Assembly: GCA_964564245.1 (NCBI GenBank)
Contig: CAZMAK010000002.1
Span: forward strand, 21,028-85,027
Source of the DNA: an uncultured Ectothiorhodospiraceae bacterium
GTDB taxonomy: Bacteria > Pseudomonadota > Gammaproteobacteria > UBA9214
Direction: 5' to 3'
DNA: 64,000 nucleotides
Shown: one piece after another, positions 37,461-63,972 of the stretch
Position numbering within the stretch: the stretch's first letter is position 1
Layout of the letters: the number at the start of each line of letters is the position of its first letter
The notes under the pieces: model-generated
What the model was told of the DNA's origin: nothing
What the model saw: only the letters and a program-made list of their open reading frames with translations
Databases searched by the model: none
Made by a program: the position numbers and the translations under genes

Positions 37461-37461
37461 C

Positions 37462-44903: not shown

Positions 44904-44926
44904 TGCATCCTGCCGGGATACGGGAG

Positions 44927-45478
44927 TTATTCCCATTCCTGGATGCTGAAGTCGGGTTGCTCGGTGGACGGGTTATCGACGATCTTCAACTCCACGAACC
45001 GCGCCCCCAGTCCCTTCTCGACGCTGACCGTGGCACCGCGCCGGTAGTCACGGCCATTGGGCCCCTTGCCGGTGTAGAAGGCGACCAGTTCATGGGAACC
45101 TGTCTTGAGGTTGCCCATGTACAGGCGCTGGACACCGCCGCGCTGCAGGGCCTCGATCTCGCGCGCGGTGTAAAGATAGTTGCTGACAACGTCGCCATCG
45201 ATCTTCAGTTGCACGGAATCCAGGCTGAAAAACTTGCCGACATCGAGCGAGACAAAGACCGCCAGCTGGGTACTGGCCGGGTACAGCAGGTCTTCTTCCA
45301 GCACGAACAGGTCACGGTTCAGTGCGATCACTTCCTGCTTGAGTGACTGGATATCGCCATCCAGCGTGGCCGCCTTGCCGGGGGCAGGTTCCGCGGCGGA
45401 GCTGACGGTCTGCACCAGCAGCAGCACGGTGCCCGCTACCAGTCGGATGATGCGTAAGGTGACAGGGTTGGTTGACAT
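44927..45478 (-). CDS. Secreted coiled-coil protein of unknown function (first gene of the TPR/ExbBD/TonB operon)
   Basis: Signal peptide; coiled-coil segment LDGDIQSLKQEVIALNRDLFVLEE. Confidence 0.55.
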   Translation of the reverse strand: MSTNPVTLRIIRLVAGTVLLLVQTVSSAAEPAPGKAATLDGDIQSLKQEVIALNRDLFVLEEDLLYPASTQLAVFVSLDVGKFFSLDSVQLKIDGDVVSNYLYTAREIEALQRGGVQRLYMGNLKTGSHELVAFYTGKGPNGRDYRRGATVSVEKGLGARFVELKIVDNPSTEQPDFSIQEWE

Positions 45479-48315: not shown

Positions 48316-48371
48316 GCATCGTTCCTCGGTCTCTGTCCTGTTCGTTACACATTCGCCGCTGTCACTCTCGA

Positions 48372-50912
48372 CTATTGCACCAGCATGGCCGCACTGCCCA
48401 GCATGGCCGCACAGGTCGCCTTCACGATCTGTTCCGAACGTACGCTGGTGGCACAGGTCGGACTCGCACCACTCGCACAGGCCGTCAGGGTCTGGATCAG
48501 GGACTCCAGTTCGGTCGTGGTGGCGGCCGGGTCCGGCTGTACCGTCAGCCCGGTATTGAATACATGATCCAGCAGTGGCTGGATCACCAGGTTGCGCTTG
48601 GCCGGGCTGTCGAATGCCGTATCGGCCGTCTCCGGGGGCAGCCCGCTGGCGAAGAATCCCGGGAAGTAGGCCTCGCGGGTGATGCTGCCCTGGTTGTCGA
48701 CCAGGGCACTGCAATACTCGATGGCCAGCTGCGCGATCGCCATCTGCTGCGCGGACAGGAAGCCGTCGATGCTTTCCACTGTCGGCAGCTGCTGCTTGAT
48801 GGTCGTGTAGACGTTCTTCACGCCGCTCTGTTCGCGACTGACGCCGGTGATTGCCGCCATGCTGGCGTCGATCTCGTCGAACGTGCGGATGCCGATATCG
48901 GAGGCCGGCGGCAGGTCCGGCGGCGCGGCCGGTGCCAGCGGGGCTGCTTCGGTAACGACATGGGTATCATTGCCCAGCGTCTCGAAGGTCAGGAAGAACT
49001 CGTCGTAATCCGGCCCCTTCTCCAGTGCGATGACGGTACCGAGCGGAGACAGTACCTGTCCGGTACCCGGCGTATAGAGCGCTGCACTGATACTCGTGTC
49101 CAGGTTGCGGTAGGCCTGGCCGACCGCGGCCTCCTTGCCGTTGATGCCGATGCGCATGCCGGACAGCGGGATGTTGTCGGGCGTCACGGCCGGATCGAGT
49201 ACGATGAAACGCGGCTTGTTGAACAGGTAGCTGTAGCTGTCGAACTGGCTGACCTCGAACAGCACATAGCTGTCCGCGATGCCGGTGTGTGCGGAGACAT
49301 TGAACAGCACGAAGAACTTCTCGCCGACTCCGACACTGTAGTTCTGCTGGATCTGTTCCGGTGTCAGGGCACGATTGTGGATGGCCACCATGCGCAGCTT
49401 GCCCTGCCACTGGCGGTCACCCGACACCTCGTTGCCGAGCACGAAGGCGAAGCTGTCATCCCAGTCGTTCAGATTACCGCCCGGGACCGGGTCCATGTCT
49501 CCGGTGAACACGCCGTTGACGTAGACGCGCCGGCCGTTGACCGGGTCGTAGGTCACCACCACGTGCTGCAGTGTGGCCTGCAGGTCCTCGTCCGCATCGG
49601 CGGTCTTCAGTTCCGGCATGCCGTTCGCGTCGGTCGTGCTGCTGCGCTGCAGGAAGTCGTAGCTGTACTTGGTCTGGCCCAGCGTGAAATTGCGTGCGTC
49701 CGTACCTGCCGAGTAACTGACGATCCTGGCCGGTCCTTCCTGCGAGATGTTGGCCGGTACCACCCAGGCCTCGATGCTGTACTCGCCGGTGGCGGTGATC
49801 AGGTCGTGCAGCTTGCGACTGCTGGTGGTGGTGGCCTGTGCCTTGCCGCTGGTGATGTCGATACCCCAGCCGCCGACCCAGGTCACGCCACCGCTCAGGG
49901 TCAGGTGCATTTCTGGCGACACACCACTGGTGTCATAGGCAATATTGCCGCTGCCCTCCTTGAACTGGTAGAGCGCGATCACGTTGTCATCGATGCGGTT
50001 GCCACCGCTGGCGACAATGCCGTCCACCAGCTTCATGGCCTTGCTGGTCACCAGCGCGGGGTTGATCTGTGTCGGGCTGATTGCACCGGCGAACTGGCTG
50101 ATGGCGGCCTCCATGATATCCGCCGAGGCGGCACAGTCGGAGCTGCCGGTATTGTTCGGGTCCCAGCAGTTGTGAAACTCGTTGCGCAGACGCACCACGA
50201 AGCGCGAATTGGCCGGATTGTCCAGGTCCATCTTGGATTTGGCATTCTCGTAGGCCGAATCCGGATCGGCAGTGGCGAAGAACGGGGCCTGCGGGGTACT
50301 GGACGAGTCGGTATGGCAACCCGAGCAGTGGGCAGTCAGGATCGGGTGGACCGTGCTGGCAAACAGCCCGGAATCCGCCGGGAAGCTCTTGCTGTCGCCC
50401 GGGTCGACCAGCACCGGTGCGGTCAGCGCGACCACGGTGCCGCCACTGGTCACGCCACCTGCCCAGGCATTGATATAGGCGGTAATGGTGTCGGCGCAGG
50501 CCTGCCAGTCCGCGGGCGTCGTACCCAGCCAGCAGTTGTGACCGCTGGCCACCTTGGTGACCATGGTTGAGCTGGCCGGGCTGTCGAGATTGATGACCGT
50601 GTTGGCTTCCGCGTAGGCCAGGTTGATGTCGTCACTGCGCACGAAGGCCGGCGTCTGGCCACCGGCGACGTGACAGCTGCCGCAGCGGTTGGTCGGAACG
50701 AGCTTGTCCCAGACATTCAGCTTGAAGGCCTGGATGTCGGCGGTCACGGGTGCGGGTCCGCTGTAGTTCGAGGCGTCACTGACGGTAACCGACGGCGCCT
50801 GGTTGGTCGTGGTGTCCGCGCCACCGCCACAGGCGCCGAGCGCCAGCGTGACCAGCAGCAGGGCCAGTACACGGACCCTCGTGTGCAGCATTTGCCTGAT
50901 GGATTCGCTCAT
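48372..50912 (-). CDS. Secreted lipoprotein with two CxxCH...HNCW cytochrome-c-like modules and a LamG-like (concanavalin) domain
   Basis: Lipobox LALGACGGG; CGSCH...GHNCW and CSGCH...FHNCW repeats; LamG-like segment (GEYSIEAWVVPANISQE); Planctomycete-cytochrome-type architecture. Confidence 0.7.
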   Translation of the reverse strand: MSESIRQMLHTRVRVLALLLVTLALGACGGGADTTTNQAPSVTVSDASNYSGPAPVTADIQAFKLNVWDKLVPTNRCGSCHVAGGQTPAFVRSDDINLAYAEANTVINLDSPASSTMVTKVASGHNCWLGTTPADWQACADTITAYINAWAGGVTSGGTVVALTAPVLVDPGDSKSFPADSGLFASTVHPILTAHCSGCHTDSSSTPQAPFFATADPDSAYENAKSKMDLDNPANSRFVVRLRNEFHNCWDPNNTGSSDCAASADIMEAAISQFAGAISPTQINPALVTSKAMKLVDGIVASGGNRIDDNVIALYQFKEGSGNIAYDTSGVSPEMHLTLSGGVTWVGGWGIDITSGKAQATTTSSRKLHDLITATGEYSIEAWVVPANISQEGPARIVSYSAGTDARNFTLGQTKYSYDFLQRSSTTDANGMPELKTADADEDLQATLQHVVVTYDPVNGRRVYVNGVFTGDMDPVPGGNLNDWDDSFAFVLGNEVSGDRQWQGKLRMVAIHNRALTPEQIQQNYSVGVGEKFFVLFNVSAHTGIADSYVLFEVSQFDSYSYLFNKPRFIVLDPAVTPDNIPLSGMRIGINGKEAAVGQAYRNLDTSISAALYTPGTGQVLSPLGTVIALEKGPDYDEFFLTFETLGNDTHVVTEAAPLAPAAPPDLPPASDIGIRTFDEIDASMAAITGVSREQSGVKNVYTTIKQQLPTVESIDGFLSAQQMAIAQLAIEYCSALVDNQGSITREAYFPGFFASGLPPETADTAFDSPAKRNLVIQPLLDHVFNTGLTVQPDPAATTTELESLIQTLTACASGASPTCATSVRSEQIVKATCAAMLGSAAMLVQ

Positions 50913-50915
50913 GGC

Positions 50916-52109
50916 TCAGTCACCCATGCAGTAGACCGCGGTTTCGGCAAACGCGGTCTTCATGTTGTAGTTCTGGGAGCGGAAATCCGCCGTGATTGCA
51001 TCGACCTCGTTGCGGTCCGCCGTATTGCCCGGTTCGCGCAGGCAGACGGTACGGAAGATCTTTTCCACCTGGCACTGTGCGAAGGCATTGCTGTCCGCCA
51101 GTTCCTGCCCCAGCGACTTGGCGCCGCTGCCACTGCCGGTCAGCGCGGAATCCCAGCCCAGCAGGGCATTCGGGCCGTTGCGCCAGTAATTGTCCCAGTG
51201 GTCGTCCGGGGTCACATAGCCGTATTTGAAGTTGTCCGAGTTGATGGTGTACTTGGGCTGCACGACACCGTCGGTGTACTCCAGGCTGCCGCTGGTGTCG
51301 TTGAAGTTGTAGTAGGCAAAGGCCTGCACCATCGGGTCCATGCCGCTGTGACAGCCCACGCAGGAGTTCAGGAAGATGCGGCTGTCTCCGCCCGGGCTGC
51401 GCGAGACATCCTGCCGGATCCGGTCCGGCGGACGTGTGGTGTCCTTGAGCTCCTCCATGTCGCTGCACAGGTGATTGAGCATCGTGAAGCGGAACATGGC
51501 GCGGTTGGTGCCGGCAATGAAGAATGCGGCGGCGGCGGCGCGCGTGGTCATGACGCCGGCCGTCGCGGCGGGTGGCAGGGAGGTCAGTGCGGACTGCTGG
51601 CGCTGTACCAGCGCGGTCTTCAGGTCGATGCCCTGGTTCTCCAGGGCCTCGTAGTGGTCGTTGTTGTCCATGCTGTAGGGCGGCAGTCCCAGTGCGGGAT
51701 CGCCGATGTACAGGATGTCGCCGGACAACACCTGGTTGAACGGTACGTCGTCGCGGATCATGCCGATGACCGTGGCGGTGTAGTCATTGAGCGGTGCAAA
51801 TACCGTCTGGTCACGGTTGGTCCAGGGGGTGACGAAATTCTTCAGCGTCACGTTGTAGAAGGCACTGTTGTCCATGGCCATCTGTGCGGCGCCAATGGCG
51901 TCATTGTTGACGATGGCGGTTTCCATGTCTCCCAGAACGGTTTCCGATGGCGGGATGCCGGCCAGCCGGTCATGGATGCGCTTTGCCTGGCGGCGTTCGA
52001 GGTCGCCGGCCAGGGCGGTGGCCGCGACGGTCACGGTCAGCAGGATTAACAGGCCCGCGTGCCGGAGCACCGGAAAACGACGGATAGTTCGTTCGGTTGG
52101 AGAACGCAT
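50916..52109 (-). CDS. Secreted CxxCH-motif protein (cytochrome-c-like domain protein of unknown function)
   Basis: Signal peptide; single CVGCH motif; 3 nt upstream of the 846-aa gene. Confidence 0.65.
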   Translation of the reverse strand: MRSPTERTIRRFPVLRHAGLLILLTVTVAATALAGDLERRQAKRIHDRLAGIPPSETVLGDMETAIVNNDAIGAAQMAMDNSAFYNVTLKNFVTPWTNRDQTVFAPLNDYTATVIGMIRDDVPFNQVLSGDILYIGDPALGLPPYSMDNNDHYEALENQGIDLKTALVQRQQSALTSLPPAATAGVMTTRAAAAAFFIAGTNRAMFRFTMLNHLCSDMEELKDTTRPPDRIRQDVSRSPGGDSRIFLNSCVGCHSGMDPMVQAFAYYNFNDTSGSLEYTDGVVQPKYTINSDNFKYGYVTPDDHWDNYWRNGPNALLGWDSALTGSGSGAKSLGQELADSNAFAQCQVEKIFRTVCLREPGNTADRNEVDAITADFRSQNYNMKTAFAETAVYCMGD

Positions 52110-52150
52110 CGATTATGCCCCGGCTCTGGTTAGTTGGTCGGGATGCCCTT

Positions 52151-52189
52151 CGGTCCCTGGGTTCCTGTGAGCATCGGTCCCTGTGAGCA
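52151..52189. promoter_or_regulatory. Tandem copies of the element TCGGTCCCTG(GGTTCC)TGTGAGCA in a divergent promoter region
   Basis: CGGTCCCTG at 52151 and 52175, CTGTGAGCA at 52166 and 52181. Confidence 0.25.
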
Positions 52190-52351
52190 AATCCTGATGG
52201 CTGGATGAGAAAAATTCTGTGACCCACCTCGCGGTTCGGTACTGCCGGTATCCCTATAGTGACTGTGCGTATTTGCAGCCACGGCAACTGTGCGGCCGGT
52301 CACAACCGGCTGCACCGTTATCAGGTTTTCCATCCGGAGCGCCGATTACCC

Positions 52352-54934
52352 ATGACCATGAACATCCATTCCAGAAACATCCCTGCAGCATTCCTGGCCA
52401 CCTGGCTGGCTGCCGCGCTGCTGTTGTCCGGCTGTGGCGGCGGTAGCGGGGGTAACGGACAGGACCCGGACCCGCTGGTGTCGGATTACGGCATGGCGTT
52501 CGTCAAACGGCCGCTGGCCGTGGATGGAACGACGGGTGCCGTCATACAGCCGGACATCACGGAGGTGGAATCCTACACAGCGGGTGGTGACCTGTATTAC
52601 CGCGACCTCGTTTCGCCCGGCGCCCCGCAACGCAACATCACCGGCGCGGTGACCGGCGGCCTGGGGGATGTCAAGGACGTCGAGGTCTCATACGACGGTA
52701 TGCGCCTGCTGTTTGCCCTGCGCCTGCCCGATATCGACGGCCTCGATCCCGAGGACCAGCCGACCTGGAATATCTGGGAATACGATATCCAGACAGATGA
52801 CCTGCATCGCGTCATCAGCTCGGACATCACGGCGGAGGCCGGCCAGGATATCGCGCCGCACTACCTGCCGGATGGCCGCATCATCTTTTCCTCGACGCGC
52901 CAGCGTCAGTCCAAGGCGACACTGCTCGATGAAAACAAGGCACAGTTTTCCGCGCTGGTTGAGGATCTCGGTCTCGGGGAGCACGCCATGGTCCTGCACG
53001 TCATGGATGGCGATGGCGGTAATATCCACCAGGTGTCGATGAACCAGAGTCACGACCTGGTGTCGACGGTGCTGGACACCGGCGAGGTGGTATTCAGCCG
53101 CTGGGACCACATGGGGGGTCGTGACGCCGTCAGCCTGTACCGGATGCATCCGGACGGATCCGAGTTGCAGCCGTACTACGGCGTGCACAGCCATGACACC
53201 GGCACCAATGGCGCCACGGTACAGTTCCTGCAGCCGCACCAGTTGCAGGATGGACGACTGATGACCATCCTGCTGCCGTTTACCGGCTCCTGGCGTGGCG
53301 GTGACCTGGTGACGATCGATGTCGACAATTACCTCGACAACACCTATGCGACGGCCGCCAACCAGGGTGTGCTGTCCGGCCCGGCCCAGGAAGCGGCTAC
53401 CGCCAACGAAGTGCATACCGATGGAACCATTTCCCCCGGCGGACGGTTCCGGTCGGCGTGGCCGCTGAATGACGGAACCGGCCGCGTACTGGTCAGCTGG
53501 AGTGCGTGCCGCGTACTGGTGAACAACCAGCCCCAGCCGTGCACGGCCGCCAACCTGGCAGCCCCGGCGCCGGTCGAAGCCGACCCGATCTACGGCATCT
53601 TCCTGTACGACCGGGACAACGGGACCCAGTTGCCGATCGTGGTGCCGCAGGAAGGCTTCGAGTTCAGCGACGTGGTGGCTGCCACCCCGCACCCGGTGCC
53701 GCCGATCCTGTATGACAAGCAGCGCGGGGTCGAGCTGGAGTCGCAGGCCTACGACGAAGGGGTCGGCTATCTCGACATCCGCAGCGTCTACGATGTCGAC
53801 GGTGTCGATACTGCGCCGGGTGGCATTGCGGCCACCGCCGATCCGGTACAGACACCGGCGTCCGCGCGCCCCGCCCGCTTCCTGCGCATCGTCAAGGCCG
53901 TCGGTATCCCCGACCGGAACACCAGGGTCGTGCCGGCCACCGCCTTCGGGCGCAGCACCGGGCAACTGATGCGCGAGATCATCGGCTACGTACCGGTGCA
54001 GCCGGATGGTTCAGTGCGCGTGAAGGTGCCGGCCAATGTACCGCTGGCCATCAGTGTGCTGGATGCCGAGGGCAAGCGCATCGGCGCCCGGCACCAGAAC
54101 TGGCTGCAGGTGCTGCCGGGCGAGACGGTGCAGTGCAACGGCTGCCACGACCACGCCAGTGGTGTCGCGCATGCCAATCCCCGGGGACCGGCGCCGGTCT
54201 GGGGCGGTGCCCAGGCCACCGGCGTAGAATTTCCCGATACCGACCCTGCCCTGTCACCGGATTATGGCGAGACCATGGCCGAGACCCTGACTCGCTTCGA
54301 ACCGGCCACCCTGCTCCCTGCCGTCGACGTGAGCTATGAAGACGTCTGGACCGATCCGAACGTGCAAACGCCGGACGCCTCGTTTTCCTATCGCTACGCC
54401 GACCTGACCACCCCGGTACCGACCACGGCGGCCTGCCAGACCGCCTGGACTCCCCTGTGCCGGATCGTCATCCACTACGTGCAGCACATCCACCCGCTGT
54501 GGAGTTTCGACCGCGGTGCCAACACCTGCACGAGTTGCCACAACCACGTCGATGCGGCCAATGCCCCCATGGTGCCGGCGGCACAGCTCGACCTGAGCGA
54601 CGGGGTCGATCCGGTCGTCACGGAACAGTTCAGTGCCTACCGTCAGCTGCTCTTCCCGCATGACGAGCTGGAAATCGGCACGTCCGGCAACCTGGAGCCA
54701 GTGATGGTGCCGGGACCGCCGGACCCGGTTACGGGCCTGCCGACGGCCCCGGTCACGGTGACGGTGAATCCGGTGATGAGTCCGGCGGGCGCCCGTGCCA
54801 GCGCCGCCTTCTTCGCGCCCTTCGCCGCCGGCGCATCACATGACGGATTTCTGACGCCTGCAGAATTGCGGCTGTTGGCCGAATGGCTGGATATCGGCGC
54901 GCAGTATTACAACGATCCGTTCGCCGTACCGTGA
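52352..54934 (+). CDS. Lipoprotein with PD40/TolB-like beta-propeller repeats and two CxxCH motifs. Start trimmed to MTMNIH.
   Basis: Lipobox LLSGCGGG; PD40-like DIAPHYLPDGRIIFSS; CNGCH and CTSCH motifs. Confidence 0.7.
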   Translation: MTMNIHSRNIPAAFLATWLAAALLLSGCGGGSGGNGQDPDPLVSDYGMAFVKRPLAVDGTTGAVIQPDITEVESYTAGGDLYYRDLVSPGAPQRNITGAVTGGLGDVKDVEVSYDGMRLLFALRLPDIDGLDPEDQPTWNIWEYDIQTDDLHRVISSDITAEAGQDIAPHYLPDGRIIFSSTRQRQSKATLLDENKAQFSALVEDLGLGEHAMVLHVMDGDGGNIHQVSMNQSHDLVSTVLDTGEVVFSRWDHMGGRDAVSLYRMHPDGSELQPYYGVHSHDTGTNGATVQFLQPHQLQDGRLMTILLPFTGSWRGGDLVTIDVDNYLDNTYATAANQGVLSGPAQEAATANEVHTDGTISPGGRFRSAWPLNDGTGRVLVSWSACRVLVNNQPQPCTAANLAAPAPVEADPIYGIFLYDRDNGTQLPIVVPQEGFEFSDVVAATPHPVPPILYDKQRGVELESQAYDEGVGYLDIRSVYDVDGVDTAPGGIAATADPVQTPASARPARFLRIVKAVGIPDRNTRVVPATAFGRSTGQLMREIIGYVPVQPDGSVRVKVPANVPLAISVLDAEGKRIGARHQNWLQVLPGETVQCNGCHDHASGVAHANPRGPAPVWGGAQATGVEFPDTDPALSPDYGETMAETLTRFEPATLLPAVDVSYEDVWTDPNVQTPDASFSYRYADLTTPVPTTAACQTAWTPLCRIVIHYVQHIHPLWSFDRGANTCTSCHNHVDAANAPMVPAAQLDLSDGVDPVVTEQFSAYRQLLFPHDELEIGTSGNLEPVMVPGPPDPVTGLPTAPVTVTVNPVMSPAGARASAAFFAPFAAGASHDGFLTPAELRLLAEWLDIGAQYYNDPFAVP

Positions 54935-54956
54935 TGACTGACGAGTAGAACTGTCT

Positions 54957-55730
54957 GTGAATCGAGCCGGGGAGGAACGCGGTTGCCGGGGACGCCTGCA
55001 CTGGTTGGCAGGTGTCCTGCTGTACGGGTGTGCGCTGGCGGCACAGGCCGCGGATGCGGACTACTACCAGGTGCGCGTGGCGGCCCCTTACCTGGAGTTG
55101 CATACCGGCCCCGGACGCGGCTACCCCGTATTCTACGTGGTCGACCGCGGCGAACTGGTCGACGTGGTCAAGCGCCGCACGGACTGGTTCCTGGTGCGCA
55201 GTGCGCGCGGCAAGGAAGGCTGGGTGAAGCGTGCCGACATGGAACTGACCGTTTCGCCGGAAGGTGCCCCGACACAGTTTTCCGAGGCCGGGTTCGGGGA
55301 TTTTTCCCGGCGCCGCCGGGAACTCGGGGTGATGGCAGGGGATTTCGAGGGGGCAAATGTCATGACCACCTATGCCGGTTACTACCTGACCCGCAACCTG
55401 TCGGCGGAGCTGCAGTTTTCGCAGGTGTTCGGAAGCTATTCCAATGCGCTCAGCGCCACGGTCAACGTGCTGGCGCAACCGTTTCCGGAGTGGCGCCTGT
55501 CGCCCTATTTTCTGCTGGGTACCGGCGTCATCCGCACCAACCCGAATGTCACGCTGGTGAGCGAGCAGGACCGTAACGAGCAGATTGCACAGGCCGGGAT
55601 CGGCGCGCGCTGGTATCTGACCCGTCGCTTCATCCTGCGGGCCGAATACCAGAACCACGTCATCTTCCAGAACACGGATGACAACCAGGAGATCAACGAA
55701 TGGAAAGCCGGGTTTGCCTTTTTCTTCTGA
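54957..55730 (+). CDS. Outer-membrane beta-barrel protein with N-terminal SH3b domain
   Basis: Signal peptide; SH3b-like YYQVRVAAPYLELHTGPG...WVKRADM; amphipathic beta strands ending in C-terminal FAFFF. Confidence 0.65.
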   Translation: MNRAGEERGCRGRLHWLAGVLLYGCALAAQAADADYYQVRVAAPYLELHTGPGRGYPVFYVVDRGELVDVVKRRTDWFLVRSARGKEGWVKRADMELTVSPEGAPTQFSEAGFGDFSRRRRELGVMAGDFEGANVMTTYAGYYLTRNLSAELQFSQVFGSYSNALSATVNVLAQPFPEWRLSPYFLLGTGVIRTNPNVTLVSEQDRNEQIAQAGIGARWYLTRRFILRAEYQNHVIFQNTDDNQEINEWKAGFAFFF

Positions 55731-55735
55731 GACCG

Positions 55736-56371
55736 GTGCTGGCGCCGGTGCTGGTGGTCGCCCTGGGCGGTTGTTCGTGGCTGCACGACAGGGAACAACC
55801 GGTCTACAGCGATTCGGAACCGGTGATCAAGCCGGAGATCGAACGGCGCACCATCACGGAGGCCAACATCGACAGCGAGGACATCGAGGTCGGTGCCTTC
55901 GCCGGCGTGATGAGTATCGAGGACTTCGGCAGCAATGTCGTGGCCGGTGCCCGGTTCGATTATCACGTGACCGAGGATTTCTTCGTCGAGGGCGCACTTG
56001 GCGCGAGCCGTGCCGGCAAGACCAGCTATGAGACCCTGAGTGGCGGTTCACAGCTGCTGACCGGCAGCCAGCGCAACCTGCGCTACTACAACCTGTCCGC
56101 GGGCTACAACCTGCTGCCGGGGGAGAGTTTCTTCGGGGGCAAGCATGCCTTCAACAGCGCTGTATACCTGATGGCAGGGGTCGGCAACACCGAGTTTGCC
56201 GATGAAAGCCACTTTACCGTCAACGCCGGTGCCGGCTACCGTTTCCTGGTCAACGACTGGGTGGCGCTGCATCTCGATTTCAAGGACCACATCTTCAGTT
56301 CCGATCTGCTTGGAACCAGCAAGACCACCCACAACCTGGAAGCTACTGCCGGTGTATCCGTATTCTTCTGA
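55736..56371 (+). CDS. Outer-membrane beta-barrel lipoprotein. GTG 55736 preferred; the ORF-track ATG 55700 overlaps the preceding gene.
   Basis: LAPVLVVALGGCS lipobox; C-terminal ...GVSVFF; OmpA-like 8-strand barrel pattern. Confidence 0.55.
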   Translation: MLAPVLVVALGGCSWLHDREQPVYSDSEPVIKPEIERRTITEANIDSEDIEVGAFAGVMSIEDFGSNVVAGARFDYHVTEDFFVEGALGASRAGKTSYETLSGGSQLLTGSQRNLRYYNLSAGYNLLPGESFFGGKHAFNSAVYLMAGVGNTEFADESHFTVNAGAGYRFLVNDWVALHLDFKDHIFSSDLLGTSKTTHNLEATAGVSVFF

Positions 56372-56381
56372 GGAGGCTCAC

Positions 56382-56954
56382 ATGCGTAACCTGATTCCTG
56401 CACTGCCGAAACCGGTCAGCCATTCATTTCTTTACGGCATGGCGCCTCTGCGCCTTTGCGTGAAAAACCTGTTTGCGCCGTTCATGGGCGCCGCCCTGAT
56501 CCTGCTGGCGAGCGTCGCGGTGGCCGGCACCACGGCGTCCCCGGCGCCGGACTTCACCCTGAAGAGCAACAGCGGCGAAAACCTGAAGCTCAGCGAGCTG
56601 CGTGGCGATGTCGTGCTGATCAATTTCTGGGCGTCCTGGTGCGGACCCTGCCGGCAGGAGATGCCGTTGCTGAGCGAACTGCATGACAAGTACAAGGATC
56701 TGGGCTTCACCGTGCTGGGTGTCAACGTGGAGGAGAATTCCGCCCAGGCACGCAAGCTGCTGAAGGAGTCTCCGGTCAGCTTCCCGGTGCTGTTCGACAA
56801 TGACAGCACGGTCAGCAAGGAATACAACGTGGTCGCGATGCCGAGCACGGTACTGGTGGATCGCGATGGCAACGTGCGTTACCTGCACAAGGGCTACCAG
56901 CCGGGCGATGAAACCACTTACCTGGACAAGGTGCGCAACCTGATCCGGGAGTGA
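56382..56954 (+). CDS. TlpA-family periplasmic thiol:disulfide oxidoreductase
   Basis: AGGAGG RBS; signal/TM; FWASWCGPCRQE active site. Confidence 0.8.
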   Translation: MRNLIPALPKPVSHSFLYGMAPLRLCVKNLFAPFMGAALILLASVAVAGTTASPAPDFTLKSNSGENLKLSELRGDVVLINFWASWCGPCRQEMPLLSELHDKYKDLGFTVLGVNVEENSAQARKLLKESPVSFPVLFDNDSTVSKEYNVVAMPSTVLVDRDGNVRYLHKGYQPGDETTYLDKVRNLIRE

Positions 56955-57184
56955 CGGGAATGAAACTGCAATTGCCGCTGCTGCTGTGCGCCGGGCTGCT
57001 GCTGGGAGGTTGCAGCCACCTTGAGCCGTGGGTGAAGCCGTATGAGCGCGCCAACCTGGCCGATCCGGTCATGAGCGCGGACCGGGACCCGGTATCCAGC
57101 GCCTATATCGCCCATGTGTACCCGGTACGCGAGGCGGCGCGCGGCGCCGCGGGCGGGCACGGAGGCGGCTGTGGCTGTAACTAG
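56951..57184 (+). CDS. DUF4266 small lipoprotein (C-terminal GGGCGCN)
   Basis: Lipobox LLGGCS; C-terminal GHGGGCGCN; ATGA overlap with tlpA-like gene; typical neighbour of DUF3570. Confidence 0.65.
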   Translation: MTGMKLQLPLLLCAGLLLGGCSHLEPWVKPYERANLADPVMSADRDPVSSAYIAHVYPVREAARGAAGGHGGGCGCN

Positions 57185-58331
57185 GTATCTGTGGCCGGGC
57201 TGTAGTGCACTGGGTGTCCTGCTATGGGGCATCGGCCACGCCGGTGTACTGCCCGAAGAACGGGCCGACGTGCTCTATCACTCCTACGACGGTGGCGGCG
57301 TGACAGTCAGCGGGCCCTCGCTGCTGGTGCTCAAGAAGGTCGGCAGTAACACGGAGCTGAACGGCAACTACTACGTGGATTCCATCAGCGGCGCCTCCAT
57401 CGACGTGCAGGTCATCAGCGGCGCCAGCCAGTATTCCGAGAAACGTACCGAGATGACCGGCGGGGTCGACTACCAGCACGGCAACTCGACCATGAGTCTC
57501 TCCTATACCAACAGCAAGGAAAACGACTACAAGGCGAACACCGCCAGTTTCAACATCAGTATGGACATGTTCGACAACATGACCACACTGACGATGGGCT
57601 ACACGCGCGGTTGGGATACGGTGGGCAAGACCGGTGACCCGACACTTGCGGCCGGCCTGGACCGGCAGAACTACCGGCTCGGCATCAGCCAGGTCCTTAC
57701 CCGGAACCTGGTCATGGAGCTCAATTACGAAGGGATAACCGATGAGGGCATGCTGAACAACCCGTATCGCAAGGTGCGTTACCGGGATCCCCTCGATACG
57801 CTGGATGGTTACAGCTTTGCTGACGAAAAATATCCGCATACCCGCACCAGCAGTGCGTTGGCGATGCGCATGCGTTATTTCCTGCCCTGGCGCGCCTCAC
57901 TGTCCGCCGGGTACCGCTACTTCGCCGATACCTGGGGTATCGATGCGCACACCGTGGAGGTGGGATACACCCACCCGTTGCTCGATCGCTGGATGCTGGA
58001 AACGACACTCCGCCAGTACACGCAGACATCCGCCGACTTCTACAGCGATCTGCTGGACTTCAATGGTTCGCAGAATTTCTACGGGCGTGACAAGGTGCTG
58101 AGTTCGTTCAGCGACAGTTCGATCGGGGTCAAGCTTGGTTTCGACATCATCAAGGGTGGCTGGCACGGCATCGACCATGCCAGCCTGAACCTGGCCTGGA
58201 ACAAGATCTGGTACGACTACCGGAACTTCCGCGATCTGCGGGTGGTATTGCCTGCCGCCGAGGTCGGAAACGAACCGCTGTACCATTTCTCCGCCAACGT
58301 GGTGCAGTTCTTCATGTCAGCGTGGTTCTGA
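57171..58331 (+). CDS. DUF3570 outer-membrane beta-barrel protein carrying a DSISGAS flavinylation-type motif. Start uncertain; GTG 57171 preferred over the ORF-track ATG 57114.
   Basis: Signal-like LWPGCSALGVLLWGIGHA; alternating beta strands; C-terminal ...FMSAWF; DSISGAS plus a second ISGAS. Confidence 0.65.
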   Translation: MAVTRYLWPGCSALGVLLWGIGHAGVLPEERADVLYHSYDGGGVTVSGPSLLVLKKVGSNTELNGNYYVDSISGASIDVQVISGASQYSEKRTEMTGGVDYQHGNSTMSLSYTNSKENDYKANTASFNISMDMFDNMTTLTMGYTRGWDTVGKTGDPTLAAGLDRQNYRLGISQVLTRNLVMELNYEGITDEGMLNNPYRKVRYRDPLDTLDGYSFADEKYPHTRTSSALAMRMRYFLPWRASLSAGYRYFADTWGIDAHTVEVGYTHPLLDRWMLETTLRQYTQTSADFYSDLLDFNGSQNFYGRDKVLSSFSDSSIGVKLGFDIIKGGWHGIDHASLNLAWNKIWYDYRNFRDLRVVLPAAEVGNEPLYHFSANVVQFFMSAWF

Positions 58332-58427
58332 GGCAAGCGATATTACCGGCATGCCGGTTAGCCGCTCCTGCCCTGCGGGCGCGATCAGATGCGCATCGCA
58401 ACCGGTCAGGGTGCCCGGGAGCGCGCT

Positions 58428-58715
58428 CTACCCGTGCGCGATCTCCTTGTCGGTAAACAGGTAGTCCCTCAGTTCCCTGTCGAACGCCGTGTCCTGCCGG
58501 CGGATCCACTCCAGCACCATGGAGGCATGTTCCTTCTCCTCGTCACGATTGTGCGCCAGGATCGCCCTCAATGCCGGGTCCTTGCAGGCGTCGACGCGCT
58601 GGTTGTACCAGTCCACTGCCTCCAGTTCTTCCATGAGCGAGATGATCGCTCGATGCATGTCGCGGGTTGCGTCCGTGAGTTCATCGACCGGTTCATGATA
58701 GCCTTCATTTGCCAT
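58428..58715 (-). CDS. Ferritin-like protein, EncFtn (encapsulated ferritin)-like, lacking an evident targeting peptide
   Basis: HEPVDEL...EELEAVDWYNQRVDA...AHNRDEEKEHASMVLEWIRR matches my recollection of EncFtn di-iron motifs. Confidence 0.55.
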   Translation of the reverse strand: MANEGYHEPVDELTDATRDMHRAIISLMEELEAVDWYNQRVDACKDPALRAILAHNRDEEKEHASMVLEWIRRQDTAFDRELRDYLFTDKEIAHG

Positions 58716-58745
58716 GTACTGTTCTCCAACCGTTGACGGTTTCGT

Positions 58746-59810
58746 GTGATGAATTTTCGTGCCGTGTCACGTGCCTTGCCGGTGTACCTGCTGCTGGCGT
58801 GCCTGGCCGGCTGTATGCAGCCGCAGCTGCAGCATCCTGATCCGAATGCTAACCGTGTGCCGGCACTAAATCCAGCACAGGCCGTCATGAGCGACGGTTA
58901 TTCATTGCCGTTATCGATCAGTGCACCGGACGGCGATGTGCAGGCGGTGTTACTGGCACTGCACGGGTTCAATGACTATCGCAACGCCTTTCATGGCCCG
59001 GCCCGCGTGTTTGCGCAGGCCGGCATCATGACCGTGGCCTATGACCAGCGGGGTTTTGGTGCGACTGCGCAGCGCGGCCTGTGGGCCGGACGACAGCGCA
59101 TGCAGCAGGATGCCCTTACTGTCGCCCGGCTGCTGTGCGCACGGCACCCGGGGGTGCCGTTGTACCTGCTCGGCGAGAGCATGGGAGGTGCCGTGGTGAT
59201 CGAGCTGTTGCAGCAGGATCTGCCGGATTGTGTCGCGGGCGCCGTGCTGGTTGCGCCGGCGATCTGGGGCTGGCAGACCATGCCGTGGTGGCAGGACCTC
59301 GCGCTGCGTGCAGCGGCGCACCTGTTGCCCGGGACCACCGTCACCGGTGAGGGCCTGCACATCACCCCATCCGACAACCGGGAGATGCTGCGGGCGCTAG
59401 GGCGCGATCCACTGGTGATCAAGGCGACCCGCATCGATACCATATACGGCCTCACCAACCTGATGGACGCCGCCTTCCTTGCAAACACCCACTTCCCGGT
59501 GCCGGTGCTGCTGCTGTACGGCGAGCACGACGAGATCATCCCGCCGTATGCCATGTGCCGGTATCTGCAGCGATTTCTCGGTAACCGTGCCGGTTCACGG
59601 ACGCTGGCGCTGTACCCGAACGGCTATCACATGCTGACCCGTGACCTGGAGGCGCAGGTCGTACTGGGGGATATCGTGGCCTGGATACAGGACCGGAACG
59701 CCGCCCTGCCCTCCGGTGACCGGGTCACGGGCGACTCGGAACGGCTGGCCGGCCTGTGTGCGGGGGCCGGAGAATCTGCCGGCCCCGCCGAGCGCGGCGG
59801 GGAAAATTGA
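58746..59810 (+). CDS. Alpha/beta hydrolase lipoprotein (lysophospholipase/monoglyceride-lipase-like)
   Basis: Lipobox LLACLAGCM; LHGFNDY, GESMGG nucleophile elbow. Confidence 0.75.
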   Translation: MMNFRAVSRALPVYLLLACLAGCMQPQLQHPDPNANRVPALNPAQAVMSDGYSLPLSISAPDGDVQAVLLALHGFNDYRNAFHGPARVFAQAGIMTVAYDQRGFGATAQRGLWAGRQRMQQDALTVARLLCARHPGVPLYLLGESMGGAVVIELLQQDLPDCVAGAVLVAPAIWGWQTMPWWQDLALRAAAHLLPGTTVTGEGLHITPSDNREMLRALGRDPLVIKATRIDTIYGLTNLMDAAFLANTHFPVPVLLLYGEHDEIIPPYAMCRYLQRFLGNRAGSRTLALYPNGYHMLTRDLEAQVVLGDIVAWIQDRNAALPSGDRVTGDSERLAGLCAGAGESAGPAERGGEN

Positions 59811-59958
59811 TCTGAATCAAGCAATCCGGATAATCCGGCCGGCCGGCTCTGTCCCGGTACTGGCCTATCCCGTCCGCGGTTTATACACTGTATCCTGAAA
59901 CCGGTGGAAATCTGTCACGCACCGGTTGTATCTGGCATCACAAACGGAGGGTAAGAAA

Positions 59959-60318
59959 GTGAAGAAAATATCCAGTCTCATTGCAACCGTTGTCATTGCC
60001 GCGTCAGCGATCCTGGCAAGCGGAACCGCCAGCGCGTGGTGGGGCAATAACGATTACTGGGGTGGCCCCTGGGGTGGTTATCCAGGCTATTACGGTTACG
60101 GCTACCCGGGTTATGGCTGGGGTGGCTATCCGGGCTATGGCTGGGGCGGCTATCCGGGCTACGGCTGGGGTGGCTATCCGGGCTATGGCTGGGGCGGCTA
60201 TCCGGGATACGGCTGGGGTGGTTACCCCGGTTATGGCTGGGGTGGCTATCCGGGCTACGGGTATGGTGTTGCCCCGGTAGAACCGGCGGCACCGTCGACT
60301 ACAACCAAGGCCAAGTAA
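59959..60318 (+). CDS. Small secreted Gly/Tyr/Trp-rich repeat protein (GYPGYGWG octapeptide repeated about 7 times); GTG start with GGAGG RBS
   Basis: Signal peptide KKISSLIATVVIAASAILASGTASA; low-complexity mature region; strong terminator. Confidence 0.6.
   Translation: MKKISSLIATVVIAASAILASGTASAWWGNNDYWGGPWGGYPGYYGYGYPGYGWGGYPGYGWGGYPGYGWGGYPGYGWGGYPGYGWGGYPGYGWGGYPGYGYGVAPVEPAAPSTTTKAK
60073..60270 (+). repeat. Imperfect 24-bp tandem repeat (GGCTATCCGGGCTATGGCTGGGGC, about 8 copies) encoding the GYPGYGWG repeats
   Basis: Direct reading; copies differ mainly at synonymous positions. Confidence 0.8.
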
Positions 60319-60394: not shown

Positions 60395-62062
60395 TTAATA
60401 GGGCCTGGTTGCCGGATAGTCACGAAATACATTCATGACCTGCACGGCCGGTGCCTGCAACACTGACCAGGTGAACAGGTCTTCCGGTTGCGGCAGCTTG
60501 TCGGCACGGTAATCCCCCAGGATCCGGTTCAGACGTTCGGTGGCAACCGGCGTGCTCCACGCGGACATCGTGACCAGGGACTCCTGGATCGTGGACGCCT
60601 GGCTAAAGTCACCGCTGGCGGCAAGTGCCAGTGCCAGCATCTCCTGCGCCGGGGGCGAGGGGTGATCCTTCGCCACCTGCCGTGCCTTTGCCAGTGCCGC
60701 GCCGGCCTCTCCCGCCTCGCCGCCACTGGCCTGCAACTGGATGTCGAGGAACTCGAGGATCCCCTGTTCGGGGAAGCGCTGCAACGCACGCTCGACCAGC
60801 TGTTGCGCCCGGGGCATTCCGTTTGCGAGCTGCAGCAGCGCGCCCGCGTAAGGCAGGTATGCGGCGAGGTTTTCCGGCGCCGCCGCGATACTGCGGGCAT
60901 AGTGCGACACGGCCTGCTCATACTGGCCGCGACGGTAACAGTCATTGCCCAGCTGCAGATGCGCGCCGGCCTGTTCGGGCTCGGCGCGGAGCGCGGCCTG
61001 GTAATGCCTGCGCGCGGCATCCATGTCACCGTCCCCCTCACTCAGTACGCCAAGCAGGAATGACGCCAGTGCGGCAGCCGGCTGCCGGTCGAGCGCTGCC
61101 TGCAGCTGCTCACGCGCCCGGTCATGGTCGCCGCTCAGGTACAGCGCACGGGCGTAACTGACACGCGCGTTGACGTTGTCTTCCTCGCGTGCGAGGCCGG
61201 CGGCGAAGGCATCGCGCGCGGCCGCGTAGTCGTGCCGGCGGTAGGCCTTCATGCCCGTGATGAAATGGATGTGCGAACCGTGTTTCAGTGCCTGCAGGCT
61301 ATCGATCTGCGGGTCCGTGAAGGCAGGCAATGTATCACCCATCAGGGCGAACTGCTGTTTCGCCTGCTCGCGCTGACCACTGGCACGCAACGCCTGCCCC
61401 AGCGAGTAGTGCACACGGTTCGCCTGTGGCTGCAGCGCAAGCGCCCGTTTGAAGTGGTCGATCGCATCCGCGTAGTGCCGCTGCAGCAGGTCCAGCTGCC
61501 CCAGCCCATGATGGGCGGCCGCGGCCAGGCCCGCGTCGTTGATGACCGCCAGGTAGGCCTGCCGCGCCCGGTCCGGTTCATCGAGTTCGCGCCAGGCGTC
61601 CGCCAGCCGCAGGGTCAGTGCCAGGTAATCGGGACGCAGCTGCCGCGCCTGTTCGTATCCCGCCACGGCCTGCCTGAGTTCACCGATGCTGGCGGCGAGG
61701 TAGGCCGAGTAGTAGATCCAGCGGAATTCTCCGGGGGCAAGCCGCCTGGCGTTGTCATAGCAGGTGGCGGCCGGGCTGTACACGAACTGGACCTGGTACA
61801 GAGCGCCCAGTTCACCGTAACTCTCCGCCAGTTCGGCATCCGGCGCCTGTTTTTCGATGGCGTCGGCGACACGCTGGCGTGCCTCGATCAGCTGTGCCCG
61901 GCTGTCGGAGTCCAGTGCGTCGAGGCCGATCTCCGCAACCGGTGACAGTCGCTTGGACAACGACGCCGGCAACCCGGACAGGGCGTCGGCGCGGACCGGC
62001 TGTGCAAGGCAGGACAGGGTCCCGGCACCCGCCAGCAGCAGGATGCGCAGCAGCGCGGCCAT
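60395..62062 (-). CDS. TPR-repeat protein with signal peptide (about 555 aa). Start trimmed to MAALLRILLL.
   Basis: Signal peptide; many TPR units (e.g. AHLQLGNDCYRRGQYEQAVSHYARSI). Confidence 0.75.
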   Translation of the reverse strand: MAALLRILLLAGAGTLSCLAQPVRADALSGLPASLSKRLSPVAEIGLDALDSDSRAQLIEARQRVADAIEKQAPDAELAESYGELGALYQVQFVYSPAATCYDNARRLAPGEFRWIYYSAYLAASIGELRQAVAGYEQARQLRPDYLALTLRLADAWRELDEPDRARQAYLAVINDAGLAAAAHHGLGQLDLLQRHYADAIDHFKRALALQPQANRVHYSLGQALRASGQREQAKQQFALMGDTLPAFTDPQIDSLQALKHGSHIHFITGMKAYRRHDYAAARDAFAAGLAREEDNVNARVSYARALYLSGDHDRAREQLQAALDRQPAAALASFLLGVLSEGDGDMDAARRHYQAALRAEPEQAGAHLQLGNDCYRRGQYEQAVSHYARSIAAAPENLAAYLPYAGALLQLANGMPRAQQLVERALQRFPEQGILEFLDIQLQASGGEAGEAGAALAKARQVAKDHPSPPAQEMLALALAASGDFSQASTIQESLVTMSAWSTPVATERLNRILGDYRADKLPQPEDLFTWSVLQAPAVQVMNVFRDYPATRPY

Positions 62063-62121
62063 CCGGTGCCCGGCCCCGTCCGCGAGACCAGGGCATACCT
62101 TCGGGCCGGACACGCTGCGAC

Positions 62122-63972
62122 TCACCGGGTCCCTGCCCGTGGTGCAGCTGAGGCGCTGTCCTGCCGGACATGCAGCATGGTGTCGACCTCGTTCACATCC
62201 ACGTTCTGGGTCTGGCCGCCGGGCCAGCGGACCTGCAGGCTATCGACGTGGTCGGCATCGCCCAGCCCGAACGTGACCGGCAACTCGGACTGGGACAGGT
62301 AGCTGCGCGTGGGCATGACCTGGCGTCGCTGCGTGACACCGTCCGCAACCAGTTCCAGCTCCGCTCCGATCGCGCTGCGATTGGCCTGGACTCCCTCCAG
62401 CTGCACCCGCAGCCAGTGGTGGCCGGTGTGCTGGTCGTTGCGCAGCAGTACCGCACGCCGGCCGTTCTGGAGGACGGCGATATCGAGGTCCCCATCACCG
62501 TCGATGTCGGCGAAGGAGGCGCCACGGCCGACCATGGTCTGGGTGATGGCACCCGGATCATCGACCAGCCGGAAGCGGTTCCGGCAGCGCGCCCCGCAGT
62601 TCCAGAACAGCTGTCCCGGCTGCGCGTAGGTCTGGCTGGGTTGCACGAGATTGATCTCCTTCTCGAGATGGCCGTTGGCCTGGAACAGGTCCAGGCGGCC
62701 GTCGAGATCGTAGTCGAAGAAAAACAGGCCGAACGTGAGCGCCAGCCGGGAGGCAGGGCCGAATCCCTCCAGTACCGCCTCGTCGGCAAACGGTGCCTGA
62801 CCGTTTTCCGTGACAAACAGCGAGCTCATCTCGTTGGCGAAGTTGCCGATCCCGACGCCGAGTTCCCGGTCATTGCGGAACCATGCGCTGTCGATGCCCA
62901 TGGCGCCGGTGGACTTGCCATTCTGGTCGTAGGCGATGCCCTCCATGACGCCGGTCTCCTCGAAGTGTCCGTGGCCGAGATTGTGGTAGAGGAAGTTGCG
63001 GGTGGTGTCGTTGGAGACAAACAGGTCCGGCAGTCCGTCACGGTCGTAGTCGACCGGTGCCACCGCCAGGGCCTTGCCGGGGACCAGTGCGCCGTTCTGG
63101 TCGTGCACCACGATGCCGGAGGTTTCCGAGATGTCGGTGAAGGTGCCGTTCCCGTCATTACGGTACAGGCGGTTGGTGGTGCCGAAGAAGTGATTCGGCG
63201 CACCAATGGCGCGTCCCAGTCCGGTGACGCGGAAATCGATTTCCAGGTCGGTCTTGCGCGACCAGTCGATGTAGTTGCCGACGAACAGGTCGAGGTCGCC
63301 ATCGAGGTCGATGTCGACGAAGGCGGCCGCAGTGCTCCAGTCTGTCCTGATGCCGGCCGTGTGGCTGGCGGCCGTGACCTCGACAAACCGGCCGTGCCGG
63401 TTCCTGAACAGGTGGTTCGCCCCCAGGGCGGTGATGTAGAGGTCGGTCCAGCCGTCATTGTCATAATCACCGACGGCGACCCCCATGCCGTAGCAGTGAA
63501 ACGCCAGTCCGGCCTCCTGCGTGACGTTGGTGAAGCTGCCATGGCCGTCATTGCGGTACAGCGCCGGATACGGCGTTGTTGCTTTTTCGTGGCCGGGGAA
63601 CCAGTCCGAATTGATCAGCAGCAGGTCCTGGTCCCCGTCATTGTCATAGTCGAGGAAGGCCACGCCGCTGCCCATCGCCTCCGGCATGAGCTTTTCGCCA
63701 TAGGCACCGCTGGTATGCACGAAGTCGATGCCGGCGGTCATGGTGACGTCGGTGAAGGTGACCGCCGGCGGGGACGGCTCGGACGGATTTTCGCCCATCA
63801 CCGGCGTTGCAACCGAAGCGGTGTCCGGCAGCGCCGGTGGCAGATCATGATCGCGCGACAGCCAGATCATGCCACCGGCCGCGAGTGCAAGCACGACGAT
63901 GACCACCAGGGAACGATAGAACGCACGCCGGATAACGGTGTCGCCCGGGTTGACCGGCCGTGGTGAACTCAT
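62122..63972 (-). CDS. CRTAC1-family protein (FG-GAP/VCBS repeats plus ASPIC/UnbV-like C-terminus)
   Basis: N-terminal TM/signal; repeated DxDxDGxxD Ca-binding loops (VGDYDNDGWTDLYI, DIDLDGDLDLFVGNY); classic pairing with a downstream TPR gene. Confidence 0.75.
   Translation of the reverse strand: MSSPRPVNPGDTVIRRAFYRSLVVIVVLALAAGGMIWLSRDHDLPPALPDTASVATPVMGENPSEPSPPAVTFTDVTMTAGIDFVHTSGAYGEKLMPEAMGSGVAFLDYDNDGDQDLLLINSDWFPGHEKATTPYPALYRNDGHGSFTNVTQEAGLAFHCYGMGVAVGDYDNDGWTDLYITALGANHLFRNRHGRFVEVTAASHTAGIRTDWSTAAAFVDIDLDGDLDLFVGNYIDWSRKTDLEIDFRVTGLGRAIGAPNHFFGTTNRLYRNDGNGTFTDISETSGIVVHDQNGALVPGKALAVAPVDYDRDGLPDLFVSNDTTRNFLYHNLGHGHFEETGVMEGIAYDQNGKSTGAMGIDSAWFRNDRELGVGIGNFANEMSSLFVTENGQAPFADEAVLEGFGPASRLALTFGLFFFDYDLDGRLDLFQANGHLEKEINLVQPSQTYAQPGQLFWNCGARCRNRFRLVDDPGAITQTMVGRGASFADIDGDGDLDIAVLQNGRRAVLLRNDQHTGHHWLRVQLEGVQANRSAIGAELELVADGVTQRRQVMPTRSYLSQSELPVTFGLGDADHVDSLQVRWPGGQTQNVDVNEVDTMLHVRQDSASAAPRAGTR

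Follow-up and report, generated by a model that had tools for sequence, protein, structure and literature searches.

The question raised by this locus is whether an outer-membrane β-barrel of the DUF3570 family carries covalently bound flavin mononucleotide (FMN) and, if so, which partners it works with. The protein is encoded in a stretch of 64,000 nucleotides (hereafter the window) from an uncultured Ectothiorhodospiraceae bacterium (contig CAZMAK010000002.1), in three overlapping genes together with a TlpA-type thioredoxin and a small DUF4266 lipoprotein. A first-pass annotation had predicted that the barrel is a substrate of the FMN transferase ApbE and that it works with the thioredoxin-like protein and the Cys-rich DUF4266 lipoprotein. 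Our results support this prediction, which concerns a family that has already been tested experimentally (Méheust, Huang, Rivera-Lugo, Banfield and Light, eLife 2021; PMC8238504), and the locus is very probably a member of the published extracytosolic flavinylation system made up of ApbE, DUF3570, a thioredoxin-like protein and DUF4266. Flavinylated DUF3570 in the company of a thioredoxin-like protein and DUF4266 has been known since 2021, and what we describe is a rediscovery; apart from the presence of both canonical SGAS motifs in one protein, the locus is one more, unremarkable member of that system. What it adds are the non-conservation of the motif glycine, the predicted topology of the motif loop and a large co-conserved gene module.

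The trio and its candidate flavinylation sites

The genes and sites on which this reading depends are as follows.

56382-56954, plus strand: TlpA/ResA-like periplasmic thiol:disulfide oxidoreductase of 190 amino acids (aa), with WCGPC and an N-terminal signal or anchor
56951 (GTG) or 56960 (ATG) to 57184, plus strand: DUF4266 small lipoprotein (PF14086, 3.5e-21)
57171-58331, plus strand: DUF3570 outer-membrane β-barrel of 386 aa (PF12094, 7.8e-42)
57378-57398, plus strand: candidate site 1 in DUF3570, D70-S-I-S-G-A-S76, predicted acceptor Ser76, a perfect match to D-x-x-[S/T]-G-A-[S/T]
57411-57428, plus strand: candidate site 2 in DUF3570, V81-I-S-G-A-S86, predicted acceptor Ser86, SGAS without Asp at −6
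45705-46703, minus strand: exported ApbE, a flavin adenine dinucleotide (FAD):protein FMN transferase (PF02424, 4.8e-88), with a probable start (MRRSCRL...) at about 46685

The identities first assigned to the trio (a TlpA protein with WCGPC, a DUF4266 protein ending in GGGCGCN and a DUF3570 protein) were borne out by Pfam matches and by the sequence itself. TlpA combines a thioredoxin fold (Redoxin, 5.4e-32; AhpC-TSA, 5.5e-32; Thioredoxin_8 among further matches) with an export signal and a CXXC active site, the WCGPC being retained in 61/67 related loci; PF13899 was not among its matches in the Pfam scan. Its top NCBIfam model is ResA (3e-35; 121.7 bits, against a model cut-off of 170), and it falls below the NCBIfam equivalog cut-offs of both ResA and TlpA, which places it among the TlpA/ResA thiol:disulfide oxidoreductases at the level of the sequence family only. 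In its thioredoxin fold, its WCGPC and its N-terminal signal or anchor, the protein resembles the DsbD/CcdA-fed proteins TlpA, ResA and CcmG, whereas its gene is coupled to those for DUF4266 and DUF3570 and not to cytochrome-maturation or cytochrome-oxidase assembly genes. Translation starts at the ATG at 56382, with GAGGAGG 5 nt upstream.

The DUF4266 protein has a lipobox (LLGGC), and the conserved C-terminal CXC lies within its GGGCGCN terminus, of which GCGCN is invariant (67/67 related loci). DUF3570 scores 144 bits against PF12094, for which the gathering cut-off is 25, and PF12094 is present in every one of its 3607 homologues at E ≤ 1e-5. Its signal peptide, judged by eye, is cut after HAG and before Val, and the protein ends in W-F. 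The most likely start of DUF3570 is the GTG at 57171 and not the ATG at 57114, because GGAGG lies 5 nt upstream of the GTG and the resulting 386-aa product is identical to a database protein (P0001). The TlpA and DUF4266 genes overlap in the sequence GTGA and the DUF4266 and DUF3570 genes by 14 nt; both overlaps are compatible with the translational coupling that had been proposed for the three plus-strand genes. A promoter and terminator scan of 51900-58800 performed at chance level and was uninformative.

The minimal ApbE motif is D-x-x-[S/T]-G-A-[S/T] (PMC12052999). As the first-pass annotation had reported, DSISGAS (residues 70-76) lies 45 residues past the predicted signal-peptide cleavage site and a second ISGAS follows it (within residues 81-86), giving two closely spaced [S/T]GA[S/T] sequences, SGAS at residues 73-76 and SGAS at residues 83-86. 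When the DUF3570 sequence was shuffled 200,000 times, D..[ST]GA[ST] arose in 0.4% of the shuffles and two [ST]GA[ST] motifs no more than 12 residues apart in 0.0055% (5.5e-5). Among the candidate proteins of the window, D..[ST]GA[ST] is unique to DUF3570. A motif search for other ApbE substrates in the window returned none, and the nearest sequence in the neighbouring 846-aa protein is ACASGAS, which upholds the earlier claim that no comparable motif occurs in the other proteins of the region. DUF3570 is therefore the obvious substrate for the local ApbE.

The motif is the one used by the FMN_bind substrates NqrC, NqrB, RnfG and PplA, in which FMN is joined through a phosphoester to the last Ser/Thr of D-x-x-[S/T]-G-A-[S/T] by an extracytosolic ApbE. 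Unlike in those proteins, the sites in DUF3570 are predicted to lie on a flexible loop of a barrel, with no folded flavin-binding domain, and a Pfam scan (E ≤ 0.01) gave no match to FMN_bind around the acceptor motif in DUF3570. The acceptor in DUF3570 would be Ser, whereas Thr is preferred.

The published system offers a close precedent. Méheust and colleagues recognized DUF3570 as a new ApbE substrate through 'orphan' apbE genes, and noted a pair of conserved [S/T]GA[S/T] motifs across 228 DUF3570 proteins associated with flavinylation (PMC8238504). The DUF3570 protein of Chlorobium luteolum was flavinylated upon co-expression with its cognate ApbE, and only a double replacement of the serines by alanine removed the signal (PMC8238504). 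Among clusters that combine ApbE, DUF3570, a thioredoxin-like protein and a DUF4266 protein with CXC, DsbD was present in 227 and absent from 316; the authors proposed that DsbD feeds a hybrid relay of thioredoxin and flavin, called its function uncertain and noted VIT1, in 25 clusters, as the only extra context (PMC8238504). We found no later work on the DUF3570 flavinylation system in the literature, and a 2025 review of ApbE is silent on DUF3570 (PMC12052999).

The locus described here matches this precedent in several respects. Like the C. luteolum pair (DUF3570, ABB24424.1; ApbE, ABB24423.1), it encodes a PF12094 protein with two close [S/T]GA[S/T] serine sites, and like the class termed 'DsbD systems', it has a thioredoxin-like partner and a C-terminal CXC in DUF4266, with an exported ApbE encoded farther off in the same region; the window is without DsbD, as are the 316 DsbD-less clusters (PMC8238504). 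To judge from family-wide conservation of the alignment columns, the motif serines here probably correspond to the modified serines of C. luteolum. The ApbE protein itself, whose N-terminal signal/lipobox sequence is MRRSCRLPILLLAC, is presumed from its sequence and position to be the enzyme that modifies DUF3570. The first-pass annotation had placed an ApbE gene about 10 kb upstream in the same island; an exported ApbE is indeed encoded 10.5 kb away, although on the minus strand and in a region that is no obvious island.

Conservation and predicted topology of the motif region

We assessed conservation in a close set of 120 DUF3570 homologues (56-100% identity, mostly Gammaproteobacteria) and in a diverse set of 67 full-length representatives, drawn from the 2582 matches (E ≤ 0.001) that an exhaustive search gave in 1.8 billion proteins. 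In the close set, there is hardly any variation in the block N-Y-Y-V-D-S-[IV]-S-x-A-S-I-D-V, and at site 1 the Asp at −6, the Ser at −3, the Ala at −1 and the Ser at position 0 are invariant; at site 2, both Ala(−1) and Ser(0) are present in 118/120. The diverse set retains the same positions of site 1 to a large extent:

Position −6: Asp in 57/67
Position −3: Ser/Thr in 56/67
Position −2: Gly 23, Ser 23, Asn 7, Asp 7, Ala 6 (n = 67)
Position −1: Ala in 58/67
Position 0 (acceptor): Ser/Thr in 64/67

At site 2 of the diverse set, Ala(−1) is found in 54/67 and Ser(0) in 56/67. Most relatives have an Asp 2 residues past the first acceptor that doubles as the −6 Asp of site 2 (D-V-V-T-T-A-S), so that the ancestral arrangement would have been two tandem D-x-x-[S/T]-x-A-S units. 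In the DUF3570 protein of the window, a two-residue insertion puts this Asp at −8 of site 2 but restores SGAS, and the co-occurrence of both canonical SGAS motifs in one protein is rare among its close relatives.

Conservation of the motif across DUF3570 homologues, on which the flavinylation prediction leans, thus holds for the acceptor Ser, Ala(−1), Asp(−6) and Ser/Thr(−3), and fails for the Gly. The positions kept in relatives appear to be those of most importance to ApbE, because in the motif mutants described (K. pneumoniae fumarate reductase for the G-to-A and D-to-A changes) loss of the acceptor abolishes flavinylation, whereas G-to-A leaves about 50% of it, A-to-V lowers it to about 50% and D-to-A has a minor effect (PMC12052999).

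An AlphaFold2 model of DUF3570, built on 72 sequences (predicted local distance difference test score, pLDDT, 78.6; predicted template modelling score, pTM, 0.76), is a barrel of about 18 strands. A Foldseek search of the PDB with this model returned outer-membrane barrels only (PelB, FadL, OccK, CymA, OmpG and PgaA; top E about 1e-8 to 1e-7), and these results, together with the signal peptide and the C-terminal aromatic residue, identify DUF3570 as an outer-membrane barrel. In the numbering of the model, which is that of the protein minus 2, strand 3 spans 59-71 and strand 4 spans 87-101. Site 1 closes strand 3, and Ser76 and all of site 2 fall in the 15-residue loop between strands 3 and 4, so that neither site is placed in the middle of a membrane-embedded strand, a location that would have spoken against the first-pass prediction.

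The strand parity of the motif loop is that of two other long loops (284-309 and 353-367) and is opposite to that of both termini and the short turns. If the loops follow the arrangement usual in outer-membrane proteins, the motif loop would be extracellular or folded into the barrel lumen. If the loop is on the non-periplasmic side, as modelled, a periplasmic ApbE would have to act before the barrel is assembled. Such early action fits the published flavinylation of a DUF3570 protein that lacked its signal peptide and was recovered from inclusion bodies (PMC8238504). A loop opposite the periplasmic turns also raises the question of where and how flavinylation and electron transfer occur.

A proposed thiol-to-flavin path and its alternatives

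In the mechanism that we favor, exported ApbE would transfer FMN from FAD to the DUF3570 precursor in the periplasm, at Ser76 and probably also at Ser86. The precursor would then fold into an outer-membrane barrel of about 18 strands whose two flavins would be on the loop after strand 3, either away from the periplasm or tucked into the lumen. TlpA would be kept reduced through its WCGPC site by a DsbD or CcdA protein, presumed to be encoded elsewhere in the genome because none is encoded in the window. Thiol-disulfide chemistry would pass electrons between TlpA and the Cys-Gly-Cys at the C-terminus of the DUF4266 lipoprotein, and the latter would exchange electrons with the flavins of DUF3570; co-conserved lipoproteins with CXXCH motifs are candidate final partners. 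Gene identities, motifs with their conservation, the barrel fold, the position of the loop and synteny are results of the present analysis, whereas the flavinylation of this particular DUF3570 protein is inferred, as are its topology, the existence and direction of the thiol-to-flavin path and the acceptor.

Several observations weigh against this account. Position −2 of site 1 is Ser in 116 of the 120 close homologues (SSAS) and Gly in only 4; site 2 reads [ST]-G-A-S in about 60% of them, and about 40% (43/120) lack its Gly and read T-A-S; and two strict [ST]GA[ST] motifs occur together in only 5/120. Because the Gly is missing this often from both sites, selection in this clade preserves D-x-x-[S/T]-x-A-S rather than the strict Gly motif, and one may ask if sites of the SSAS type are modified by ApbE. 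In the window's own protein, site 2 has no Asp at −6, and pLDDT is below 50 in the motif loop of the model. Two distant DUF3570 proteins at 28-33% identity (P0192 in locus L089 and P0270 in locus L092) still lie within an operon of SH3-OMP (a small barrel protein with an SH3 domain), a small barrel, TlpA, DUF4266 and DUF3570, and one of them, P0270 (28% identity; L092 9001-10161), has lost both acceptor serines (DQVRAPDVD...PRAR). The loss of acceptor serines from some distant DUF3570 proteins of the same operon type therefore implies that the barrel also has a flavin-independent role or a flavin-free form. In C. luteolum, the ApbE gene is adjacent, whereas here it is about 10.5 kb upstream of DUF3570, on the opposite strand and in a divergent arm, a distance outside the ±5-gene window used in the published survey (PMC8238504). 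Across 80 related loci, an ApbE gene lies within 10 kb downstream of the gene for a Tat-exported 528-aa protein (Tat528) in 25 and is absent there in 55. The thioredoxin-like partner here is of the Redoxin/AhpC-TSA (TlpA) type and that of the published clusters is PF13899, of the same fold and role class (PMC8238504). Finally, neither DsbD/PF02683 nor any other transmembrane electron carrier was found among the open reading frames (ORFs) scanned across the 64-kb window.

The glycine substitutions and deletions, the scarcity of strict motif pairs, the 55 loci without a nearby ApbE gene and the serine-free P0270 would all be expected if the motif region served chiefly the structure or assembly of the barrel, with no flavin or only one in vivo and with the SGAS pair a lineage-specific coincidence on a D-S-I-S-x-A-S-I-D-V scaffold. 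We nonetheless consider this very unlikely. The acceptor Ser, Ala(−1), Ser/Thr(−3) and Asp(−6), which are key for ApbE, are precisely the conserved positions, and the window's protein has a perfect motif, with an ApbE gene in the same region. Where no ApbE gene is nearby, a genome may draw on one at another position, for example beside nqr. The K. pneumoniae mutants described above also show that neither the Gly nor the Asp is indispensable (PMC12052999), and both sites are modified in the C. luteolum homologue (PMC8238504). Two further alternatives accept the trio but assign it a different chemistry. TlpA might be mainly a reductase of the ResA/CcmG type that keeps the CXXCH cysteines of neighboring cytochrome lipoproteins reduced for haem attachment, and no donor to DUF4266 or DUF3570; ResA is its best NCBIfam match, three co-conserved neighbors (the 891-, 846- and 397-aa proteins listed below) contain five CXXCH motifs, and WCGPC is a typical reducing-type active site. 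The ResA score remains below the model cut-off, however, and TlpA, DUF4266 and DUF3570 stay together, with overlapping genes, in loci that have no divergent cytochrome arm, which makes haem attachment as the main role of TlpA quite unlikely. Cytochromes likewise go unmentioned for the hundreds of published clusters in which the trio occurs together (PMC8238504). Alternatively, electron flow could be reversed, as in a QSOX/Erv-like thiol oxidase of the outer membrane, with electrons passing from thiols to TlpA, the DUF4266 Cys-Gly-Cys, the flavins and then haem lipoproteins or oxygen. The layout of thioredoxin fold, Cys pair and flavin resembles that of flavin-dependent sulfhydryl oxidases, the co-conserved haem proteins could take up the electrons, and no DsbD is encoded in the window as a source of reducing power. 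Reversed flow is unlikely in our judgment, since TlpA proteins of the WCGPC type are usually reductants. In addition, 227 of the published DUF3570 clusters include DsbD, which delivers electrons outward (PMC8238504).

The co-conserved gene module and its surroundings

The trio stands at the end of a plus-strand operon whose order is 891-aa lipoprotein, SH3-OMP, TIGR04565 barrel, TlpA, DUF4266 and DUF3570, and a divergent arm on the minus strand leads from the 397-aa CXXCH/DUF1585 protein through the 846-aa protein, Tat528 and ApbE to a 183-aa secreted protein, three tetratricopeptide repeat (TPR) proteins, ExbB, ExbD and TonB. The members that accompany the trio and ApbE are the following.

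52259-54934, plus strand: 891-aa lipoprotein with a hydrazine-synthase-alpha-like middle domain (HZS_alpha, 1.7e-16) and CNGCH and CTSCH haem motifs
54957-55730, plus strand: SH3 and small outer-membrane barrel protein, SH3-OMP (SH3_3, 1.4e-09; OMP_b-brl, 2.2e-08)
55700-56371, plus strand: small outer-membrane barrel, OMP223 (TIGR04565 OMP_myx_plus, 5.5e-51)
50916-52109, minus strand, divergent arm: 397-aa CXXCH protein with DUF1585
48372-50912, minus strand, divergent arm: 846-aa lipoprotein with 2 CXXCH motifs and Laminin_G_3
46729-48315, minus strand, divergent arm: Tat528, 528-aa Tat-exported protein with a twin-arginine signal and an alkaline-phosphatase fold

The 891-aa lipoprotein, the first gene of the plus-strand operon, also matches PDB entry 5c2v (9.6e-06), and an HZS-like gene still accompanies DUF3570 at 33% identity. 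Full-length-homologous proteins with the JDVT-CTERM sorting signal adjoin the DUF4266/DUF3570/TlpA neighborhood of a few species (Haft 2023, bioRxiv 10.1101/2023.06.07.544157); inspection by eye of the C-terminus of this 891-aa protein specifically revealed no such signal.

To follow the module across genomes, we searched one genome of each GTDB species with Tat528, which gave more than 590 matching stretches, and took 80 of these loci for tblastn searches with the window proteins. In many of these loci, DUF3570 falls beyond the locus edge. Homologues were distributed as follows.

cyt846: 77/80 loci
cyt397: 71/80 loci
HZS-like protein: 68/80 loci
SH3-OMP, OMP223, TlpA and DUF4266: 67/80 loci each
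p183/TPR/ExbBD/TonB block: 13-28/80 loci

All of the gammaproteobacterial loci that reach the TlpA/DUF4266 end (67/67, within L006-L084) contain the full gene set from Tat528 to DUF4266. With DUF3570 this makes a nine-gene module (46729-58331) of Tat528, the 846-, 397- and 891-aa proteins, SH3-OMP, the TIGR04565 barrel, TlpA, DUF4266 and DUF3570, carried by many marine and sediment Gammaproteobacteria, including Paraglaciecola, Alteromonas, Microbulbifer, Thiodiazotropha, Sedimenticola and other genera; in Paraglaciecola arctica, the genes beyond Tat528 are unrelated. In the contexts of distant DUF3570 genes, where the SH3-OMP gene also adjoins DUF3570, a five-gene unit persists (SH3-OMP, small barrel, TlpA, DUF4266 and DUF3570), often preceded by an HZS-like cytochrome, and one distant locus has a divergent Redoxin/TPR arm despite the loss of the flavin serines from its DUF3570. 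A TPR arm similar to that of the window adjoins one distant DUF3570 operon.

The nine-gene module is absent from the account of the published system and appears to be undescribed in the literature; two small outer-membrane barrels, three CXXCH lipoproteins and a Tat-exported protein are features here that go unmentioned there (PMC8238504). Its fixed companions (the haem lipoproteins, small barrels and Tat-exported enzyme) are candidate partners for the DUF3570 system, although the genes of the divergent arm at 46729-52109 are co-conserved context and not proven partners. The label 'island' given to this region in the first-pass annotation does not stand: we considered a mobile island and rejected it, as G+C content is uniform (0.60-0.66) and the region is bordered by housekeeping genes (the fab cluster, tmk, holB and genes of β-oxidation).

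The first-pass annotation had also suggested that the trio might relay electrons to the cell surface, a speculation that is compatible with the predicted loop topology. As a functional analogy only, the MtrAB/MtrC porin-cytochrome conduits likewise combine a barrel associated with redox cofactors and lipoprotein cytochromes encoded close by, and share in principle a possible electron route across the outer membrane. They have no homology to the present system, however, in which a barrel of about 18 strands with predicted loop flavins takes the place of a barrel that sheathes a decahaem protein. Should the flavin loop face outward or occupy the lumen, the two flavins could form a thiol-to-flavin relay across the outer membrane together with TlpA and the Cys-Gly-Cys of DUF4266, as one arm of a larger undescribed machine that includes the two small barrels, the three CXXCH lipoproteins and the Tat-exported enzyme with its alkaline-phosphatase fold, and that perhaps serves iron or another extracellular redox substrate. 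We regard this extension as doubtful. Hints of a role in iron, which are speculative, come from an encapsulated-ferritin-like (EncFtn-like) neighbor, the TonB system and the published link to VIT1.

The EncFtn-like gene (58428-58715, minus strand) converges on the end of DUF3570 and is followed by an alpha/beta hydrolase gene (58746-59810); the same pair follows DUF3570 in a locus at 61% identity (L001). The scanned ORFs included no gene for an encapsulin shell. TonB-ExbBD/TPR genes and the EncFtn-like gene are often found near the conserved module. In the window, the genes downstream of ApbE (36525-45478, minus strand) encode the 183-aa secreted protein, TPR proteins of 637, 928 and 337 aa, ExbB, ExbD and a TonB-C protein. 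On the other side, just past the module, the plus-strand gene at 59926-60318 encodes a 130-aa secreted protein that, in its ORF translation, consists largely of about 7 tandem GYPGYGWG repeats and is rich in Gly, Tyr and Trp, and 60395-63972 on the minus strand encodes a 576-aa TPR protein and a 616-aa FG-GAP/ASPIC-UnbV repeat protein.

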